Position numbers and translations under genes: made by a program
In this document: positions 34,485 to 45,495 of the stretch, one piece after another
How positions within the stretch are numbered: position 1 is the stretch's first letter
How the letters are laid out: each line of letters begins with the position of its first letter
Assembly (NCBI GenBank): GCA_045541915.1
Contig: JAZQJZ010000039.1
Location: 13,253-77,252, forward strand
Direction of reading: 5' to 3'
Source: Eubacteriales bacterium
GTDB taxonomy: Bacteria; Bacillota; Clostridia; Oscillospirales; SIG627
DNA: 64,000 nucleotides
The notes under the pieces: generated by a model
Seen by the model: only the letters and a program-made list of their open reading frames with translations
What the model was told of the DNA's origin: nothing
Databases searched by the model: none

Positions 34485-34494
34485 GAACCAAAAC

Positions 34495-34527
34495 AAAAAG
34501 GAACTGCATTTTGCAGTTCCTTTTTTT
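34495..34527 (+). terminator. rho-independent terminator after nifJ
   Basis: aaaaaggaactgca-ttt-tgcagttcc followed by seven T. Confidence 0.85.
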
Positions 34528-34590
34528 GTATCCGGAAACCCCCGCGCCAGTGGCGCGATTTGGGAAAGGGGCTCCGGCAAGAAGAAAAAG

Positions 34591-34741
34591 AGAAGGCGAT
34601 TGGGTAAAGGCCAGAATTTTGGCGAAGATCCGACGGGAGGCAGGTTGCCTCCCCTACAGGGTTTGGGGAAACCGAAGTATTGTTCTTTTTCTACGGGCTG
34701 TCGAGGACGTCAGCCCCTACAGAGTTTGGGGAAATCGGGAT
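34591..34741 (+). repeat. 151-bp direct repeat, copy A (two hairpin+CCCCTACAGrGTTTGGGGAAA subunits)
   Basis: Aligns base-for-base with 35144-35294 with a handful of substitutions. Contains hairpins gggaggcaggttgcctccc and gggctg-N10-cagccc. Confidence 0.85.
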
Positions 34742-34801
34742 TTTTAGTGAGAGAGGCGGACAATGTAACAATCGGGTTTTTGGTACAATATCGTGGCACA
34801 T

Positions 34802-35060
34802 TTGCCTTCCCCAGTGGGGGAAGGGGACCACGAAGTGGTGGATGAGGTATGCGAAACGCCAAAACAATATTTCTTCACATAAATTCGTTCGGCGATATCG
34901 TAGGGGAGGCAATCTGCCTCCCGTTCTGCGGCAAACCACAAAACATTCTTTTTCAAATATTCCGTTCTGGCATTGTAGGGGCCGACGTCCCCGACGGCCC
35001 GCCCTGGGGCAAAAAAACCAAAATTTCTGCCAAAACCCCGTTTGGGATTTCATAGGTGCT
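34802..35060 (-). repeat. REP-like palindromic units in opposite orientation
   Basis: Contains gtaggggaggcaatctgcctccc and gtaggggccgacgtccccgacggccc, which are reverse-orientation versions of the hairpin+CCCCTAC units. Also ccttccccagtgggggaagg...ggatgaggt, the reverse of the unit at 35098-35143. Confidence 0.6.
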
Positions 35061-35143
35061 GATTCCAAAGAAGGAGAAAACAAAAACCGGGAATTTTTTG
35101 ACACCTCATCCGTCAGCCTGCACCTGCCACCCTCTCCCGCTGG

Positions 35144-35294
35144 AGAAGGCGATTGGACAAAGGTCAGAATTTTGGCGAAGATCCGACGGGAGGCAGGTTG
35201 CCTCCCCTACAGGGGTTGGGGAAACTGAAGTATTGTTCTTTTTCTACGGGCTGTCGAGGACGTCAGCCCCTACAGGGTTTGGGGAAATCGGGAT
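35144..35294 (+). repeat. 151-bp direct repeat, copy B
   Basis: See copy A. Ends 5 nt before the left palindrome of the XRE/SLOG cassette. Confidence 0.85.
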
Positions 35295-35298
35295 ATAG

Positions 35299-35337
35299 TT
35301 TTGCGCAAAAAAAGACCGGAAAAACCGGTCTTTTTTT
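35299..35337. terminator. terminator-like palindrome, left bracket of cassette 1
   Basis: ttttgcgc-aaaaaaa-gaccgg-aaaaa-ccggtc-ttttttt. Abuts the XRE stop codon at 35338-35340. Confidence 0.8.
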
Positions 35338-35679
35338 CTAATTTCCTTTGAATTGATCCATTTCCTTGAGGATTCTCATGATTCGCTCTTGATCCTCCTG
35401 GCTTTTGGCCAATAAAAACTCATAGCATTCAAGAGGCAAATTTGGCTGGGAATCACACTTTTCTCCACCAAGGTTTTCAAGTAGCTTGGAAAGAGAAACG
35501 TTTAACGAAGAAGCAATTTTTTCGATACTTTCCAAGGTGGCGTTCTTTTCTCCGCGCTCCAATTGACCGATATAGGTTGGGTGACAACCGGCAAGCTCGG
35601 CCAACTTTTCTTGACTAAAACCCAGTTTTGTTCTGTAATTTCGGATCCGTTGCCCTACAATTTTTGCTAAATCTTTCAC
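35338..35679 (-). CDS. XRE-family HTH transcriptional regulator with a ~45-aa C-terminal extension
   Basis: 113 aa. HTH_3 pattern GFSQEKLAELAGCHPTYIGQLERGEKNATL. GTG start 5 nt after a GAGGTG RBS. Confidence 0.85.
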   Translation of the reverse strand: MKDLAKIVGQRIRNYRTKLGFSQEKLAELAGCHPTYIGQLERGEKNATLESIEKIASSLNVSLSKLLENLGGEKCDSQPNLPLECYEFLLAKSQEDQERIMRILKEMDQFKGN

Positions 35680-35734
35680 AAAATCACCTCTATATTAGAG
35701 TCTATAAATATTAGCGGGAATATTCCACAGACTA

Positions 35735-35763
35735 TTGATATTGATAATTTAGAGGTATATACT
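35735..35763 (+). promoter_or_regulatory. promoter candidate for the SLOG gene of cassette 1
   Basis: TTGATA (35735-35740), 17-nt spacer, TATACT (35758-35763). The -10 overlaps the left arm of an 11-bp inverted repeat (35761-35771 / 35789-35799). Confidence 0.4.
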
Positions 35764-35814
35764 ATAAGCACCGGCGCTTTGTTTTTTTGTGCTTATAGTG
35801 TTTGAGGTGAAACA

Positions 35815-36294
35815 ATGGATCCAAAGTATACTTGTTGTGTTTTTGGTCACAGAAACATAGAGAAAAGTGAATCGTTAAGGGCGAGACTTTATTGCGTTAT
35901 GGAAGAACTGATACGGAAAGAACGGGTTGAGACTTTCCTGTTTGGGAGCAAAAGCGCTTTCAACGATCTTTGCCATGCCGTCGCAACAGAGTTGAAGGAG
36001 AAGTATCCACACCTTAAACGAATTTATGTGCGAGCGGAATATCCTCATATTAGTGAGCAGTATCAGGATTATCTTTTAGGACTTTATGAGGATACTTATT
36101 ATCCGGAAAAGATCTTGGCCTCGGGAAAAGCAGTTTACATTGAGCGCAACTATGAAATGATTCATCAAAGCCGGTTTTGCATTGTTTATTATGATGAAAA
36201 AAAGACAGCGGTCGAAGGAAAAAGCGGAACGAAAATCGCCCTCGAATACGCTATAAAAAACGGAAAACGTTTGATCTTATTGCCTTCTCTCTAA
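35815..36294 (+). CDS. DUF1273/YpsA-like SLOG-fold protein
   Basis: 159 aa. N-terminal CCVFGHRN (family pattern C.FTGHR), TFLFGSKSAF loop, C-terminal KSGTKIALEYAIKNGKRLILL (family pattern GGT...YA...GK.I.N). GAGGTG RBS. Confidence 0.6.
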   Translation: MDPKYTCCVFGHRNIEKSESLRARLYCVMEELIRKERVETFLFGSKSAFNDLCHAVATELKEKYPHLKRIYVRAEYPHISEQYQDYLLGLYEDTYYPEKILASGKAVYIERNYEMIHQSRFCIVYYDEKKTAVEGKSGTKIALEYAIKNGKRLILLPSL

Positions 36295-36296
36295 CC

Positions 36297-36336
36297 TTTT
36301 TGCGCAAAAAAAAGACCGGTTTTTCCGGTCTTTTTT
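36297..36336. terminator. terminator-like palindrome, right bracket of cassette 1 (loop inverted relative to the left copy)
   Basis: ttttgcgc-aaaaaaaa-gaccgg-ttttt-ccggtc-tttttt. Same flank and arms as 35299-35337, but the loop is ttttt instead of aaaaa. Confidence 0.8.
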
Positions 36337-36368
36337 GTTTCTATCATATGGAAGAGGGGAATGGCCCT

Positions 36369-37658
36369 TTACCAGCGGCATACGCCCAGGCCGTTTTCCA
36401 TCTGGATGGAAACGCCGTAAGGCGCGCTCATTTTGGCCAGGTCCTCCATAAAGGCAAGATCCTTTGCCGGCTGGGGCAGACCCTCCAGGTGCTTGCCCTC
36501 GCCCTTGCTTGCCTTAACGGGCATCAGAACCAGCTTGGTCAGCTTTTTGTTTTCGTCGGTTTCCCAGTAGGGGATCACCGTTTCCAGCATCCTGGGATCC
36601 TCCATCAAGCCGCGGGTAAAGCCGGCGGAGCGCTTCTCCAGAAGAGAGATGGGGGAGGAATTGGAATCCATACCGTATTTTTTGTAAAAATCCTCGGGTG
36701 CAACGGGAACCTGATACAGCTGAATGATAAAATCGCCCAGAGAATAGAAAATGGGCTTTTCCTGATATACTTCAATGGCGCGAAGCAGATGAGGACCGTG
36801 ACCCACCACCGCGTCAGCACCGGCATCGATCAGGGTGTGGCAAATGTCCTTGAGCACCTGGGGAACGGTGGTCTTATCGCTTCCCACGATCTGGTGAGCG
36901 TGAAGGGAGATCATCACGTAATCGGCGCAAAGGGAGGCTTCCCGGATGGAAGCGATGACCCGGTCCATATCTTCCTTGCTGGGGGTTGAGATCAGGTCGA
37001 AGCGGTCGCCCTTGACAAAATTCAAGGTACCGATTTCTGCCGTTCCCTCCGGCAAAAAGGGATAATAACCCTCCCGACGGGTAATGTTTTTCGGCTCGTT
37101 GATCTGGGTCTTTTCGCCGATTTCCTGCACAGTCTTGAAGGCTTCCTCGGGAACCATCAGCTTTTGGGAAATATTGATTCCGTTGATACCGGGTCTGCCG
37201 GGAATACGACGGGACATTTCGCCGGCCATCATAGCCGGAGCAAAGGAGGTGTTGATGCAAATCAGCGCTACCCGGCCGTTTTTTGTTTCCAGGTAAGCCG
37301 GCGCGGCGGCCTGGTGCAGATTCATACCCACACCGCTGTGTACCACGCCGGTACGGGACACGTATTCAATGGTTTTTTCCATACCCAGATGGTCAAAGTC
37401 CATGGCGTGGTTGTTATTGAAGGTGGTGGTGTTAAAGCCGAATTTCAGCATATCCTCCATCACTTCGGGGGTGCATCTGACGTAAGTTCCGCCGGAATGC
37501 TGGCAAGCGTAGCACTCGCCCTCATAATTGACGGTGGTTTCCAGGTTGAAAAAGCGGCAGTCACCTTGATCCAGAAAGGCCTTGATGGGAGCAAAGCCCT
37601 CGTAATCTTCGGGAAGTCTTCTTTGACAGAGAACGTCACCTACGGCTGTAAATTTCAT
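36369..37658 (-). CDS. CapA/PGA-cap family metallophosphatase-like protein
   Basis: 429 aa. GD....NLE....NNH..D.G..G pattern (AVGDVL...FFNLET...FNNNHAMDFDHLG) typical of the CapA family. Confidence 0.7.
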   Translation of the reverse strand: MKFTAVGDVLCQRRLPEDYEGFAPIKAFLDQGDCRFFNLETTVNYEGECYACQHSGGTYVRCTPEVMEDMLKFGFNTTTFNNNHAMDFDHLGMEKTIEYVSRTGVVHSGVGMNLHQAAAPAYLETKNGRVALICINTSFAPAMMAGEMSRRIPGRPGINGINISQKLMVPEEAFKTVQEIGEKTQINEPKNITRREGYYPFLPEGTAEIGTLNFVKGDRFDLISTPSKEDMDRVIASIREASLCADYVMISLHAHQIVGSDKTTVPQVLKDICHTLIDAGADAVVGHGPHLLRAIEVYQEKPIFYSLGDFIIQLYQVPVAPEDFYKKYGMDSNSSPISLLEKRSAGFTRGLMEDPRMLETVIPYWETDENKKLTKLVLMPVKASKGEGKHLEGLPQPAKDLAFMEDLAKMSAPYGVSIQMENGLGVCRW

Positions 37659-37868
37659 TGTTCATTTTCCTTTACTTTTTTAAATGTTATTTGCTTTTTG
37701 CCTTTTCAGTTTACTCTTTATGCCACCTGATGTCAAGTAAAAAAAGGTTCTTTCTACGAAAAACAAGGGAGAATTTCCAGAAAAATATTGTGAAGAAAAA
37801 AGGATTGTGATACAATAAAAGAAAGAGATTGTCAGGGGAGGAGTTCCCTTTCCCCTTGAGGAGAAAAC

Positions 37869-38816
37869 ATGAAGATCACGGTATTTGAATGGGAAACGGT
37901 TTGCGGAAGCGATCTGGATCCCGGCGGCTTAGAAAAGCTTGGTCAGGTGCGCTTTTTCGGCACGCCAAAGCCGGAGGAGGTAGTCTCCCTTGTTGGCGAC
38001 AGCCAGGCGGTTTTGTGCAGTAAGGTTCGCTTTACTGCGGAGGTGATGGATGCCTGCCCCAATCTTTCTTATATTGGCCTTATGGCAACCGGGTATAATA
38101 ATATTGACATTGCCGCCGCCCGGGAGCGGGGAATCCTGGTGACCAACATTCCCGATTATTCTGCCGATGCTGTCTGCCAGATGACCATGGCTTATATTTT
38201 GCAGTTTGCCACCAATCTCATTCGGTATGACGCCGCCACCAAACGGGGCGACTGGACACGATCCCCCTTCTTTTGCTATTATCCCTATCCCATGATCGAG
38301 CTTTCCGGCAAAACCCTTGGCCTTTTGGGCCTTGGCTCCATTGGAAGCCGCGTAGCAAAGGCGGCGGAAGCCTTTGGAATGAAAGTTCTTTATCACACCC
38401 GGAGAAAACGGGACGTTCCCTATGAATATGTTTCCCTGGAGGAGCTGTTTTCCCGGAGTGACTTTCTCTCCCTTCACTGCCCCTTGACCGAGCAAACAAG
38501 TGGAATCATCAACAAAGAGGCTCTTTCCAAAATGAAGAAAAATGCCTATTTGATCAACACGGCCCGCGGCCCTCTGGTGAAGGAAGAGGATCTGGCAAGG
38601 GCGCTGAAGGAGGAACGGATCGCCGGATTTGCCGGAGACGTTCTGGTAAACGAGCCCCAGCGGGAGGACTGCCCCCTTTTGGGCCTAGAAAACTGTATTC
38701 TCACTCCCCACATTGCCTGGGCACCCAAGGAGACCAGAGAGCGCCTTTGGGGAATTCTTCTTTCCAATTTAGAGGCATTCTTATCCGGCGAGCCGAAGAA
38801 TGTGGTGGAAGGGTAA
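37869..38816 (+). CDS. D-isomer-specific 2-hydroxyacid dehydrogenase (glycerate dehydrogenase-like)
   Basis: 315 aa. NAD motif GLLGLGSIGSRVA and catalytic-region pattern NTARG...TPHIAWA. Confidence 0.85.
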   Translation: MKITVFEWETVCGSDLDPGGLEKLGQVRFFGTPKPEEVVSLVGDSQAVLCSKVRFTAEVMDACPNLSYIGLMATGYNNIDIAAARERGILVTNIPDYSADAVCQMTMAYILQFATNLIRYDAATKRGDWTRSPFFCYYPYPMIELSGKTLGLLGLGSIGSRVAKAAEAFGMKVLYHTRRKRDVPYEYVSLEELFSRSDFLSLHCPLTEQTSGIINKEALSKMKKNAYLINTARGPLVKEEDLARALKEERIAGFAGDVLVNEPQREDCPLLGLENCILTPHIAWAPKETRERLWGILLSNLEAFLSGEPKNVVEG

Positions 38817-38882
38817 AAAGTTCAAATTGAGGAAATGATTTTCCTTTTATATAAAACCAATATCAAAAAGGAGATGGATGCT

Positions 38883-39677
38883 ATGAATGCAAAATCAAAA
38901 AAACCCGGTATTGTGATCGCCATTGTCTTGATCTGTCTTGCGGCGCTGTTTGTCCTTGCCAATTGCTTTACCATTGTAGAAGCCGGCCATACGGGCGTGG
39001 TTCTTACCTTGGGTAGGGTGAATGAGGCCGTTCTGTCCGAGGGCTTTCACTTGAAAATTCCCTTTGCCCAGGAAGTGGTGCAGATCGACAACCGTATTTC
39101 CAAATTGGAAGTGAATACTGAGGCCTTTTCCAAGGACCTGCAGACCGTTTCCACCACCCTTGCCATCAACTATCGCGTGGATTCTGCCAAGAGCAGTGAG
39201 CTTTATCAAAACATCGGAAGAAATTATGAAACCGTTTTGGTGGTACCGGCGGTGAACGAGGTATTGAAGGCCATCACCGCCCGGTACACTGCCGAGGAGA
39301 GCGTAACCAACCGCGTGATCATTTCCGACGGGCTCATTTCCGGCTTGAATGAAAAACTCAACGAGGAAGGGCTTTATGTGAACGATGTGAACATTATGAA
39401 CTTCGACTTTTCCGAAGCGTTCATTACGGCCATTGAAGAAAAACAGGTGGCCCAGCAGCAGCTTTTAAAGGCCGAGACGGAAAAGCAAACTGCCATTACC
39501 AATGCCGAGGCAGAGGCAGAGACCATTCGCATCAAGGCTCAGGCTGAGGCGGAGGCCAACCGCATTGTCAGCGAATCCTTAAATGAGATCATCATTGAAA
39601 ACAAGAAGATCGAAAAGTGGAACGGTCAGCTTCCTCAGGTAATGGGGGATGCAGATCCGCTGATTGCCATTGAATAA
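38883..39677 (+). CDS. SPFH/prohibitin-family membrane protein
   Basis: ATG 38883, 8 nt after AAGGAG. N-terminal TM helix, SPFH core, Ala/Glu-rich coiled-coil tail. Confidence 0.8.
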   Translation: MNAKSKKPGIVIAIVLICLAALFVLANCFTIVEAGHTGVVLTLGRVNEAVLSEGFHLKIPFAQEVVQIDNRISKLEVNTEAFSKDLQTVSTTLAINYRVDSAKSSELYQNIGRNYETVLVVPAVNEVLKAITARYTAEESVTNRVIISDGLISGLNEKLNEEGLYVNDVNIMNFDFSEAFITAIEEKQVAQQQLLKAETEKQTAITNAEAEAETIRIKAQAEAEANRIVSESLNEIIIENKKIEKWNGQLPQVMGDADPLIAIE

Positions 39678-43480: not shown

Positions 43481-44650
43481 ATGGAAAAGGTACGTTACGG
43501 CATCATCGGCCTTGGAAACCAGGGCAGCACCTACAATTTGAAGATTTTTGACAGAGACAAGGTGGAAAACGGAGTGGTCACCGCCCTTTGCGATAACGAT
43601 CCGGAAAAGATCCGCATCATGAAGGAAAAGACCCAAAACCAATCCATCACCTATTTTGAAGACTATAAGGAAATGCTCGACTCCGGCCTTTGCGATGCGG
43701 TTTTAATTGAAACGCCCCATTACATTCACCCGGAAATCTCGATGGAGTGCTTCAAGCGCGGTATTCATGTGCTCTGCGAAAAGCCGGCAGGCGTTTATGC
43801 CGACCAGGTACGGGAAATGAACGAAGCAGCCGAAAAGACCAATTCCCTTTTCGGTATGATGTTCAATCAGAGAACCAATTGCAACTATCGGAAAATGAGA
43901 GAAATGGTCCTGGGCGGTGAAATCGGAGAAATTCAGAGAATCACCTGGATCATCACCGACTGGTTCCGCACTCAGACCTATTACGATTTAGGTCAGTGGA
44001 GAGCCACCTGGTCCGGAGAGGGCGGCGGCGTTCTCATCAACCAGGCTCCTCACCAGCTGGATCTGGTGCAGTGGATCATCGGTCAAAGCCCCAAATCGGT
44101 CAACGGCTTCTGCAAGTACGGACACTGGCACGATGTAGAGGTGGAGGACGAGGTTACCGCATATCTGGAATATGAAAACGGCGCCACCGGTGTGTTCATC
44201 ACCACCACCGGCGAAGCACCCGGCACCAACCGCCTGGAAATTTCCGGCACCAAGGGAAAGCTTCTCTGCGAAGGGAAGAATTTGATGTTCTATCGCAATG
44301 CCCAGGATAGCCGGGAGTACTCCAAAACCTCCCCGGAAGCCCATAAAAAGCCTGATGTGGAAGTGATCGAAGTGGAGACCGACGGCAAGAATCCCAAGCA
44401 CGCCGGCATTATCAATAACTTTACCAATGCCATTCTGGGCAAGGAAGAGCTCTTTGTGGATGGCAGAGAGGGAATCCGCGGCGTGGAGCTGATGAACGCC
44501 ATCGAATATTCCGGCTGGATGGGCGGCATCAAGGTCACCCTTCCCGTGGACGGCAAACAGTACCTGGAGGAATTGAACCGCCGCAGAGCCACCTCCCGTG
44601 TGAAGGAAAAGGTGGAGGCCAAGGTTCTGGATACCTCCAACAGCTATTAA
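43481..44650 (+). CDS. Gfo/Idh/MocA-family oxidoreductase
   Basis: 389 aa. Rossmann YGIIGLGNQG and the EKP motif in VLCEKPAG. Confidence 0.85.
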   Translation: MEKVRYGIIGLGNQGSTYNLKIFDRDKVENGVVTALCDNDPEKIRIMKEKTQNQSITYFEDYKEMLDSGLCDAVLIETPHYIHPEISMECFKRGIHVLCEKPAGVYADQVREMNEAAEKTNSLFGMMFNQRTNCNYRKMREMVLGGEIGEIQRITWIITDWFRTQTYYDLGQWRATWSGEGGGVLINQAPHQLDLVQWIIGQSPKSVNGFCKYGHWHDVEVEDEVTAYLEYENGATGVFITTTGEAPGTNRLEISGTKGKLLCEGKNLMFYRNAQDSREYSKTSPEAHKKPDVEVIEVETDGKNPKHAGIINNFTNAILGKEELFVDGREGIRGVELMNAIEYSGWMGGIKVTLPVDGKQYLEELNRRRATSRVKEKVEAKVLDTSNSY

Positions 44651-44653
44651 AAT

Positions 44654-44687
44654 AAAAAGATGTGTGGAAAATCCACACATCTTTTTT
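44654..44687. terminator. terminator-like palindrome, left bracket of cassette 2
   Basis: aaaaagatgtgtggaaaatccacacatctttttt. Identical 34-mer recurs at 45452-45485. The SLOG stop codon overlaps its T-run. Confidence 0.85.
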
Positions 44688-45138
44688 ATATTTTCTCCAG
44701 TGGAAAGCTTCCCAAGTTGATAATTTTAATGTTTTTCTTTTTTGCTTTTTCAATATAAGTGTAGGTGTTGGAAATAGGATTTTCTAAAAAGCAAACAATA
44801 AAATCAACGCGGTTCAGCATAAAATGGTTTCGTTTGGAGATTGCAAAGCGTTTTGGCGTTTTTGAAATGCAGTCGGGAAAAATGGTTTTTTGGAGGTCAT
44901 AATAAATGGAATTCTTTTTTTGATTTAAATAGGCTAACACCACCTTGATTTCAATGCTGTGTTTTTCTTCAAGGGAGCATAAAACTTCATAAGCAGTTTT
45001 GTCAAATCTTCCGTGAGTACCTACGAAAAAAGTATGAACATTTTCATTGATAATCAAATTTTCAATCACTGAAAATAAGGCTTTTCTCAAATCATCTGGA
45101 CAATTTCTATGTCCGAAAAAAGCACACGCCGCCATCAT
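44686..45138 (-). CDS. DUF1273/YpsA-like SLOG-fold protein, diverged paralogue of 35815-36294
   Basis: 150 aa. MMAACAFFGHRN, HTFFVGTHGRFD loop, C-terminal NTYTYIEKAKKKNIKIINL. GAGGTG RBS sits 2 nt upstream of the first ATG (45138-45136), so the second ATG (45135-45133) is the more plausible start. Very AT-rich. Confidence 0.55.
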   Translation of the reverse strand: MMAACAFFGHRNCPDDLRKALFSVIENLIINENVHTFFVGTHGRFDKTAYEVLCSLEEKHSIEIKVVLAYLNQKKNSIYYDLQKTIFPDCISKTPKRFAISKRNHFMLNRVDFIVCFLENPISNTYTYIEKAKKKNIKIINLGSFPLEKI

Positions 45139-45235
45139 ATCACCTCTTTTATTCCATCCATTTTAAGGGAATTCCCCTTAAAAGTCAATAAGGCATCATC
45201 CCTTAAGGCATAATTTATTAGAAGGGGTGATAAGG

Positions 45236-45448
45236 ATGTTTCATAGAATTCGCGATTTGCGCGAGGACCGGGATCTGACGCAAACACAATTGGCCCGGTA
45301 TTTGCAAATTCATCAAACAACTTATTCCGATTATGAAATTGGGAATTTGAATGTTCCCGTGGACATTCTCATCAAATTGGCAAAGTTTTATGATACCAGC
45401 GTTGATTATCTTGTGGAATTGACAAACGAAGCCAAGCCATATCGATAA
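45236..45448 (+). CDS. minimal XRE-family HTH protein
   Basis: 70 aa from ATG 45236, after a GAAGGGG RBS. HTH_3 pattern LTQTQLARYLQIHQTTYSDYEIGNLNVPVDILIKLAKFY. Confidence 0.8.
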   Translation: MFHRIRDLREDRDLTQTQLARYLQIHQTTYSDYEIGNLNVPVDILIKLAKFYDTSVDYLVELTNEAKPYR

Positions 45449-45451
45449 AAC

Positions 45452-45485
45452 AAAAAGATGTGTGGAAAATCCACACATCTTTTTT
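45452..45485. terminator. terminator-like palindrome, right bracket of cassette 2
   Basis: Identical to 44654-44687. Lies between the XRE stop (45448) and the convergent gene's stop (45496). Confidence 0.85.
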
Positions 45486-45495
45486 TTGCTTTGGT

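Follow-up and report, generated by a model that had tools for sequence, protein, structure and literature searches.

A stand-alone YpsA-like SLOG gene of gut Clostridia is paired with divergent, apparently exchangeable regulators

Several known bacterial systems are governed by a small helix-turn-helix (HTH) repressor encoded divergently from the gene that it controls. They include CapH(/CapP)-controlled cyclic-oligonucleotide-based antiphage signalling systems (CBASS), restriction-modification (R-M) systems with a C protein, DicA-dicB of the Qin prophage and LexA-yneA of Bacillus subtilis. In these systems operators lie over the promoter of a potentially harmful gene. Here we describe a two-gene cassette with a similar predicted layout in a 64-kb stretch of the Eubacteriales contig JAZQJZ010000039.1, which we call the window and whose positions serve as coordinates throughout. 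Cassette 1 consists of a gene for an XRE-type HTH regulator and, diverging from it, a gene for a 159-aa SLOG protein. Unlike the systems named above, it lacks a CapP-type protease, a restriction enzyme, a division-inhibitor peptide and an SOS box, and its payload is a SLOG protein. To our knowledge, the swapping of six regulator classes on one payload, which we report below, has not been described for CapH, C-protein, DicA or LexA systems.

The SLOG proteins to which the cassette protein is closest stand in other settings. YpsA of B. subtilis (2NX2) resembles it in fold, size, single-domain build and, at or near the threshold, Pfam family; both have a glycine-aromatic-basic motif after strand 1, ...YD after strand 4 and G/S-x-x-K/Y...A before the last helix. 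Whereas YpsA shows gpsB synteny and lies in a cotD-ypsA unit (PMC6459960), the cassette protein comes with a dedicated divergent repressor gene, and it has an extra conserved loop, YEDTYYPE, which is predicted with low confidence. YoqJ (COG4474) of the SPbeta prophage is another member of the YpsA family, and its function is likewise uncharacterised. It resides on a mobile element, however, whereas the cassette clade is nearly absent from phages and plasmids and is defined by its divergent regulator. ShosA of ShosTA (8ZVA), the best structural match, has a SLOG/DprA-like domain and also belongs to a two-gene conflict module; it is a DNA-binding protein of 308 aa and the antitoxin to a phosphoribosyltransferase (PRTase) toxin (PMC11961720). 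The cassette has neither a PRTase nor another partner enzyme, and the partner of its SLOG protein is a putative transcription factor. The SLOG (STALD) domain of ThsA in Thoeris shares the fold and gives a weak PADLOC match, but ThsA fuses this sensor to a SIR2 or transmembrane effector and needs a TIR signal producer, whereas the cassette protein stands alone, with no signal-producing gene linked to it.

The cassette architecture is real, widespread in gut Clostridia and undescribed in the sources that we searched. In the window, the open reading frame (ORF) listing and the sequence confirmed the gene pair that an earlier note on this DNA had described, an XRE/HTH_3 gene and a 159-aa gene diverging from 135 bp (Table 1). 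Also present as quoted there are the GAGGTG ribosome-binding sites (RBSs), which sit 5 nt before each start (35685-35690 on the minus strand for the XRE gene, 35804-35809 for the SLOG gene), and the SLOG peptide motifs CCVFGHRN (residues 7-14), TFLFGSKSAF (40-49) and KSGTKIALEYAIKNGKRLILL (136-156). For comparison, a scan of one genome per species gave 359 related loci. We fetched 80 (given below by L numbers), mostly from Acutalibacteraceae, Oscillospiraceae and 'Clostridia' gut metagenome-assembled genomes; three were cut at a contig edge and 77 were informative. A small divergent DNA-binding gene lay directly upstream of the SLOG gene in all 77. The two genes were likewise neighbours in a congener of the window organism, at the WP_320690925.1 locus of the cultured species Monoglobus pectinilyticus and in all four loci examined from the clade of a second, diverged copy in the window. 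The pairing is not a product of chance; it is obligatory. An obligatory dedicated repressor would mean that the dosage of the SLOG protein matters and would make repressor removal an experimental handle, with M. pectinilyticus as a cultured carrier for such tests. Neither PADLOC nor the searchable literature, which does not include the SLOG-defining paper, describes an XRE or ribbon-helix-helix (RHH) regulator and a stand-alone YpsA-like SLOG protein as a unit, in keeping with the earlier note, which knew of no XRE+DUF1273 system.

The regulators of the 77 loci fell into six non-orthologous classes, five of them XRE types (53 loci) and one an Arc-like RHH type (24 loci). Class A, the window type, has 113 aa. 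Class B (77 aa) ends right after the HTH, class C (80 aa) carries HTH_26, and classes D and E have about 111 and 90 aa, respectively. The RHH regulators (66 aa) score 25.8 bits against Pfam Arc, give weak ParD-like matches and end in a tail of about 20 aa that is conserved. The window regulator matches HTH_3 with 59 bits (E 4.5e-16; Pfam cut-off 23) and carries some 45 further conserved residues at its C-terminus (PLECYEFLL...). It is 74-81% identical to eight orthologues, the C-terminal part included, and the partner SLOG proteins, at about 63%, are less conserved. Against PADLOC it matched an R-M control protein (E 8e-19) and, over its full length, capH (E 2e-13); despite the latter match, no CapP metallopeptidase gene adjoins the cassette. 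A single-sequence model of the regulator had a predicted local distance difference test score (pLDDT) of 58, too poor for use.

The regulator class and the SLOG gene vary almost independently of each other. When SLOG pairs at least 90% identical were compared, their regulators belonged to the same class in 33%, which is about the chance level. At three pairs of orthologous loci (L044/L045, L008/L016 and L018/L031), the flanks and SLOG genes are 89-95% identical and the regulators are unrelated; the non-homologous segment runs from the regulator stop codon to SLOG codon 4-5. Since near-identical SLOG genes at the same locus have unrelated regulators, the repressor-operator unit is exchangeable, with the regulator and control region as a replaceable module and the SLOG gene as a constant payload. 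Two conserved housekeeping sites tell the same story: the 24 loci between greA and lysS have regulators of classes B, C, D and RHH, and the 11 between merR and matE have classes C, D, E and RHH. In four cases, L073, L067, L084 and Monoglobus, an old and a new regulator are stacked, which looks like an intermediate of regulator replacement. Both occupy the upstream side of a single SLOG gene, in combinations such as class A with class C, or an RHH remnant with class C (L073, 4917-5657; L067, 5289-5879; L084, 2883-3361; L093, M. pectinilyticus NZ_OY725739.1, 1814-2373). One payload with six seemingly interchangeable locks, sometimes at the same locus in sister genomes, offers a natural experiment in regulatory modularity, and the regulator classes could become a source of orthogonal repressor/operator parts for use in Clostridia. 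Wherever a genome has two or three cassettes (L032/L039/L056, L021/L040, L012/L079, L006/L059 and L072/L080), their regulator classes differ; with a chance expectation of about 0.12, this is only a trend.

The control regions contain candidate operators that change with the regulator class. In an alignment of eight class-A cassettes, two direct-repeat boxes, the -10 element and the arms of an inverted repeat are conserved and the spacers are variable. The consensus of the boxes is AG(T/A)CTAT(T/A)(G/A)ATATT, one box contains the -35 element, and the inverted repeat (ACTATAAG ... CTTATAGT) spans the expected start site. Each of the other classes has a palindrome of its own between the -10 element and the RBS: CGATATATCG in three copies, GATATAC-N-GTATATC, AAGTAAAT-N4-ATTTACTT, or ATATCC-N5-GGATAT. 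Such class-specific palindromes are the signature of repressor-operator pairs that travel together, and we infer their operator function from this pattern. The proposal in the earlier note that the XRE protein gates the SLOG gene gains support from the position of these palindromes over a near-consensus promoter. We also considered 35762-35798 as an RNA attenuator hairpin and dropped it; most of its left arm, which overlaps the -10 element, would stay untranscribed, and across loci only the arms are conserved, with no extension of the stem.

Table 1. Features of the two cassettes, in window coordinates
Feature	Position	Strand	Description
Cassette 1, left terminal hairpin	35299-35337		Predicted bidirectional intrinsic terminator abutting XRE stop; TTTTGCGC-AAAAAAAGACCGG-AAAAA-CCGGTCTTTTTTT
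Cassette 1, class-A XRE regulator	35338-35679	minus	113 aa, GTG start; HTH_3 at residues 12-66
Cassette 1, divergent control region	35680-35814		135 bp between the two genes
Cassette 1, direct-repeat boxes	35697-35712; 35729-35742		AGAGTCTATAAATATT; AGACTATTGATATT; conserved in class-A alignment
Cassette 1, predicted SLOG promoter	35735-35740; 35758-35763		-35 TTGATA, 17-nt spacer, -10 TATACT; 10/12 consensus positions
Cassette 1, inverted repeat	35762-35771; 35789-35798		CTATAAGCAC; GTGCTTATAG; about expected transcription start
Cassette 1, stand-alone YpsA-like SLOG protein	35815-36294	plus	159 aa, ATG start; conserved payload
Cassette 1, right terminal hairpin	36298-36336		Predicted bidirectional terminator 3 nt past SLOG stop; also serves convergent PGA_cap gene
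Copy 2, left terminal hairpin	44651-44690		AAAAAGATGTGTGGAAAATCCACACATCTTTTTT; overlaps SLOG2 stop, 1 nt past GFO/IDH/MocA stop
Copy 2, SLOG2	44686-45138	minus	150 aa; distant paralogue, Pfam YpsA 25.3 bits (under 27.7 threshold)
Copy 2, control region	45139-45235		97 bp, divergent
Copy 2, XRE2	45236-45448	plus	70 aa; HTH_3 E 4e-15, 56 bits
Copy 2, right terminal hairpin	45449-45486		Adjoins XRE2 stop; 10 nt from convergent DUF4838 stop

The 159-aa protein scores 27.2 bits (E 4.5e-6) against Pfam YpsA/DUF1273 (PF06908), whose curated gathering threshold is 27.7, and falls far under the cut-off of NCBIfam PRK13660; a consensus of 28 clade members reaches 33.2 bits, above the Pfam threshold. A phmmer search of 1.84 billion representatives returned 1,010 clusters at 50% identity, and at 90% identity the homologues form more than 4,500. 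Most bear a precomputed PF06908 match, and many are already annotated as PF06908, 'SLOG family protein', 'DUF1273' or 'phage-like protein YoqJ' (JGI). The clade is therefore abundant, and its biochemistry is uncharacterised in the searchable papers. An AlphaFold2 model built from the family alignment (pLDDT 80, predicted template-modelling score 0.78) was compared with the PDB using Foldseek, and all matches with E <0.01 were SLOG proteins: ShosA (8ZVA, E 1.6e-5, the best), YpsA (2NX2, E 1.6e-4, TM-score 0.67), DprA and ThsA. In a viral fold library the top matches were DUF2493, DprA-like and YpsA-related SLOG domains. Sequence searches of the PDB, with the single protein and then with a profile, gave no true match, and YpsA was reached by the fold search alone. 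Because homologue annotations, the clade consensus score and the fold matches agree, the assignment to SLOG is sound, and we regard the protein as a divergent YpsA-type member. The SLOG/DUF1273 membership that the earlier note had claimed from motifs is supported at family level.

The protein appears distinct from YpsA proper. Its similarity to 2NX2 is marginal (hhalign E 0.047; nothing with phmmer), the GxD/E motif of YpsA is aligned with other residues and there is no gpsB synteny: the neighbours in the window are PFOR and PGA_cap, and neither DivIVA nor GpsB is among the 25 families listed per side for 264 flanking proteins of related loci, a list of families with at least two proteins that would miss a single occurrence. 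In the low-confidence hhalign alignment, G53 and E55 of YpsA correspond to R48 and N50, and G42 to R37; the counterpart of E44 is E39, a position at which most clade members have D. The authors of the YpsA study cautioned that YoqJ does not conserve the residues on which division inhibition depends (PMC6459960); the same caution is equally valid for the cassette protein, and transfer of the YpsA division-block phenotype to it is not supported by the alignment. The SLOG gene is under strong purifying selection, with a median ratio of nonsynonymous to synonymous substitution (dN/dS) of 0.11 over 788 pairs. L050 has, about 1.5 kb downstream of its complete SLOG gene, a partial second copy (8019-8333). 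The family stands in a different context on pRUMAL02 of Ruminococcus albus 7 (L094, 1216-4173), where two site-specific integrase genes flank a distant SLOG homologue (31% identity) that lacks an HTH neighbour.

We propose, at a probability of about one half, that the locus is a chromosomal cassette of about 1 kb in which an autoregulating repressor locks a SLOG payload that is costly when unregulated. The small repressor, here the 113-aa XRE protein, would hold the divergent SLOG gene shut by binding operators specific to its class, which lie over a near-consensus sigma-70-type promoter and the 5' untranslated region. The SLOG protein would normally be silent and would be made in a burst once the repressor is lost, titrated or degraded. 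It might then bind or process a nucleotide-derived ligand, or bind DNA, at a cost if unregulated; the likely result would be that growth or division stops, or that the cell responds to an invader. The regulator, operators and first 4-5 SLOG codons have repeatedly been replaced by recombination, for which the conserved SLOG gene and flanking host DNA serve as homology arms; turnover of the lock would reflect selection that favours diverse regulators, so that copies stay orthogonal or anti-repressors are escaped. The window copies would have arrived horizontally, each as a unit with its bidirectional terminator hairpin duplicated at the two ends. As read from sequence, the transcriptional lock is the well-supported part of this proposal. 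The costly or conflict-related role of the payload is suggested by the universal dedicated repressor, the turnover of locks, the different locks of multiple copies, the patchy acquisition and the precedent of YpsA, whose overproduction shows that a family member can do harm (PMC6459960). Were the payload antiviral or growth-arresting, the cassette would be among the smallest conflict systems, in an under-studied gut lineage and with a new mode of regulator diversification.

A number of points weigh against a costly payload under a dedicated lock. We infer operator binding and repression from sequence, none of the regulators carries a signal-sensing domain that can be recognised, and the cassette has no known trigger. 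The closest structural relatives include SLOG proteins that are not toxic, namely ShosA (an antitoxin), DprA (a recombination mediator) and the SLOG domain of ThsA (a sensor), so the fold does not imply a harmful effector. The residues of YpsA that block division are not conserved in the low-confidence alignment. Long vertical residence beside greA-lysS fits a cellular function, and successful horizontal acquisition implies that the unrepressed state was tolerated on entry. PADLOC has no model for a SLOG-plus-regulator system, and the only PADLOC-DB v2 match of the SLOG protein is ThsA STALD over the C-terminal glycine-loop/helix (E 0.021, 12 bits). Finally, the defence candidates found near some cassettes (PDC-S01 six times, PDC-M13 five times, AbiH, SoFic, type I and IIG R-M, DruA and AriA) are a minority of neighbours whose counts are inflated by synteny. 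The association of the cassette with defence candidates, and with it the case for a defence role, is modest. At one conserved locus the gene past the SLOG gene is often HTH_3-DUF3990 with a small ORF (PDC-M13), followed by AbiH (L016, 6524-8995), and at the other it is often AAA_14-DUF4143 (PDC-S01; L030, 6510-7883).

The strongest competitor, although still an unlikely one, is a regulated cellular function. The SLOG protein would then be a benign helper in DNA repair or recombination, like DprA or ShosA, or a LOG-like salvage or detoxification enzyme, induced by stress through the local repressor, and regulator turnover would be neutral recombination in the promoter region. Fixation at greA-lysS and merR-matE in 35 of the 80 loci would be expected of such a gene, as would the purifying selection, a chromosomal location that is neither phage- nor plasmid-borne, and best fold matches to non-toxic SLOG proteins that bind DNA or ligands. 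Harder to reconcile with it are a dedicated repressor in 100% of loci and six non-orthologous replacements with their own operators, which are rare for a benign enzyme, as well as the two or three copies per genome with different locks, the foreign composition and patchy placement of the copies in the window and the congener, and the defence candidates that adjoin some loci.

The second copy in the window bears on how the cassettes move. BLAST for a paralogue of cassette 1 in the window found nothing, and a family profile then detected SLOG2 (E 7e-16), which forms with XRE2 a second divergent pair at 44686-45448; the label 'copy 1' in the earlier note was therefore warranted. Copy 2 lies between convergent GFO/IDH/MocA and DUF4838 genes. 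SLOG2 has 84 homologues, and its clade is 25% identical to the copy-1 clade; the four loci examined, with their divergent architecture, have HTH_3, HTH_26 or Arc-like regulators. Against 51.1% G+C in the window, cassette 1 has 39.4% and copy 2 has 35.3%, and no other 950-bp stretch of the 64 kb is as low in G+C as these two. The counts that the earlier note gave for sampled 60-nt lines, 27 and 25 G+C in cassette 1 (35881-35940 and 36121-36180) and 36 in a flanking gene (44521-44580), were exact on recount.

Both copies are bracketed by duplicated hairpins (Table 1). The hairpins of cassette 1 are duplicates of each other with the loop flipped: their 30-nt arms form a perfect inverted repeat (30/30, 100% complementary), a 15-nt sequence, TTTTGCGCAAAAAAA, is additionally repeated directly, and the hairpin sequence occurs at these two places in the window and no others. 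Those of copy 2 form a 32/32 direct repeat found nowhere else in the window. A duplicated flanking hairpin also accompanies the class-A cassette of the congener, and 12 of 71 family cassettes lie above the 99th percentile of a partner-shuffled null for flanking repeats. Among class-A cassettes, homology starts and stops at the two stop codons. The congener, 80% identical in nucleotide sequence in the PFOR region, has its class-A cassette elsewhere, between gap and ddl, and a third relative has none near PFOR. By their low GC, their duplicated hairpins and the different site in the congener, both window copies look horizontally acquired. A terminator hairpin or repetitive extragenic palindrome (REP) pair is also duplicated on both sides at L081, L003, L007, L012, L024, L046, L059, L084 and L087.

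The earlier note had called the cassette a horizontally moving module, which is only partly right. Both window copies look acquired, whereas at greA-lysS (24 loci) and merR-matE (11 loci) it is the regulator that moves, not the gene pair, and the cassette there is mostly vertical. The evidence on the origin of the hairpins points in different directions. Since the copy-2 hairpin also brackets a copy-2-type cassette at an unrelated locus of another genome (L084), and L003 and L009 have a hairpin in common, the hairpin seems to belong to the element. At copy 2, on the other hand, the host stop codons abut the hairpins and there is no third terminator, as target duplication would give. We found no empty site: the PFOR relatives L081-L083 are rearranged here, and the DUF4838 orthologues L090-L092 have other neighbours. 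A metagenome scan for the copy-2 hairpin gave one match, at a contig edge. Models of the hairpins as Xer/dif-like sites, integron attC sites or IS200/IS605 ends were set aside; the hairpins of the two cassettes are unrelated and no cognate recombinase gene is nearby. In L084 (4054-4445) an insertion of about 350 bp, with its own hairpins and 'ATATCAC' repeats, interrupts the loop of the right hairpin copy; the insertion may be a small mobile element that is non-coding and has hairpin loops as its target.

The duplicated hairpins hint at a new route by which small units that encode no recombinase could enter the terminators of convergent genes. Each window cassette consists of two genes only, with no transposase, integrase, recombinase or phage gene among them, and no recombinase gene lies near either one. 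A bolder form of our proposal, in which the cassette is a recombinase-less minimal mobile unit, made of two genes, their divergent promoter region and one bidirectional terminator hairpin that comes to stand at both ends, and its SLOG effector arrests the cell or blocks phage once the interchangeable lock is removed, strikes us as doubtful. Improbable, too, is a self-mobilising minimal element in which a DprA-like SLOG protein would recombine or integrate the cassette at the hairpins and the repressor would limit this. Such an element would explain terminal hairpins duplicated in the absence of a recombinase gene and the recurrence of one hairpin around copy-2-type cassettes at unrelated loci of two genomes, and DprA and ShosA are DNA-binding SLOG proteins active in recombination. 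Yet flanking repeats are kept in only the 12 of 71 cassettes, stable vertical descent is seen for many cassettes, strand-transfer chemistry is not known from SLOG domains, and neither an empty site nor a circular form was found.

The analogy to a toxin-antitoxin pair, also drawn by the earlier note, was not borne out, and we judge a type II or IV system, in which the regulator neutralises a SLOG toxin by contact or counteraction and the module persists by addiction, quite improbable. It is true that exchange of DNA-binding domains such as XRE and RHH is typical of antitoxins, that the conserved tail of the Arc-like regulators and their weak ParD-like matches would suit one, and that ShosTA shows a SLOG protein within a toxin-antitoxin type of defence (PMC11961720). 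But the SLOG protein of ShosTA is the antitoxin, not the toxin, and purely transcriptional control yields no post-segregational killing. The reading is unlikely because in every locus the two genes diverge and form no operon and because the regulators have no common neutralising segment: SLOG proteins 90-95% identical occur with non-homologous regulators that share no C-terminus, and class B stops after the HTH.

Least probable of all is a prophage or integrative-element remnant, a YoqJ-like moron with an immunity-type repressor, for although COG4474/YoqJ is a member of SPbeta whose name JGI gives to homologues, the repressor-operator mosaicism resembles phage immunity regions, recombinase genes adjoin the cassette on the regulator side in about 6 of 70 related loci (tyrosine integrase in four, resolvase in two) and L084 lies 3 kb from a terminase gene, a pattern scan of 2.9 million IMG/VR contigs found no relative, only 1 of 50,697 phage and 2 of 72,556 plasmid records match (at about 30% identity), no phage genes surround either window copy and most flanks are housekeeping. 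Phage and plasmid collections contain next to no members of the clade, and we see no support for an origin from either.

The genomic surroundings of the cassettes are varied. The genes next to the window copies are metabolic (PFOR, PGA_cap, 2-hydroxyacid dehydrogenase, Band_7, GFO/IDH/MocA and DUF4838). In the related loci the flanks are diverse, with 156 and 134 Pfam families in 133 and 131 neighbours on the two sides, mostly housekeeping genes such as lysS, greA and matE. The earlier note had seen no functionally linked neighbour, and the flanks in the window and in the related loci agree with that. Most window proteins are singletons at 90% identity, and an exact look-up of the window SLOG protein gave no contig.

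Beside cassette 1 lies a non-coding zone (34590-35294) that resembles REPs or bacterial interspersed mosaic elements, with six 'GTAGGGG-stem-loop-stem-CCCG' units of two families. The units lie within a 152-bp direct repeat (34590-34741 and 35143-35294, 96%) and are the only ones in the 64 kb. The REP families of the window recur in L012, L028, L031, L043, L063, L066, L067, L072 and L084. REPs looked enriched beside cassettes, with 9 of 19 within 300 nt where 2.8 are expected, but we do not take this as evidence of a link, because REPs are confined to intergenic DNA. In a comparison of window 34493-39677 with L082, which is 80% identical in ChlI-PFOR, the Band_7/2-hydroxyacid-dehydrogenase block is inverted and lies on the other side of PFOR, and the homology breaks exactly at the start of the REP zone. 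Elsewhere in the window, a Gut-1 RNA (Rfam RF01706) at 7998-8068 on the minus strand, with 62.5 bits against a gathering score of 50, is the sole Rfam match.

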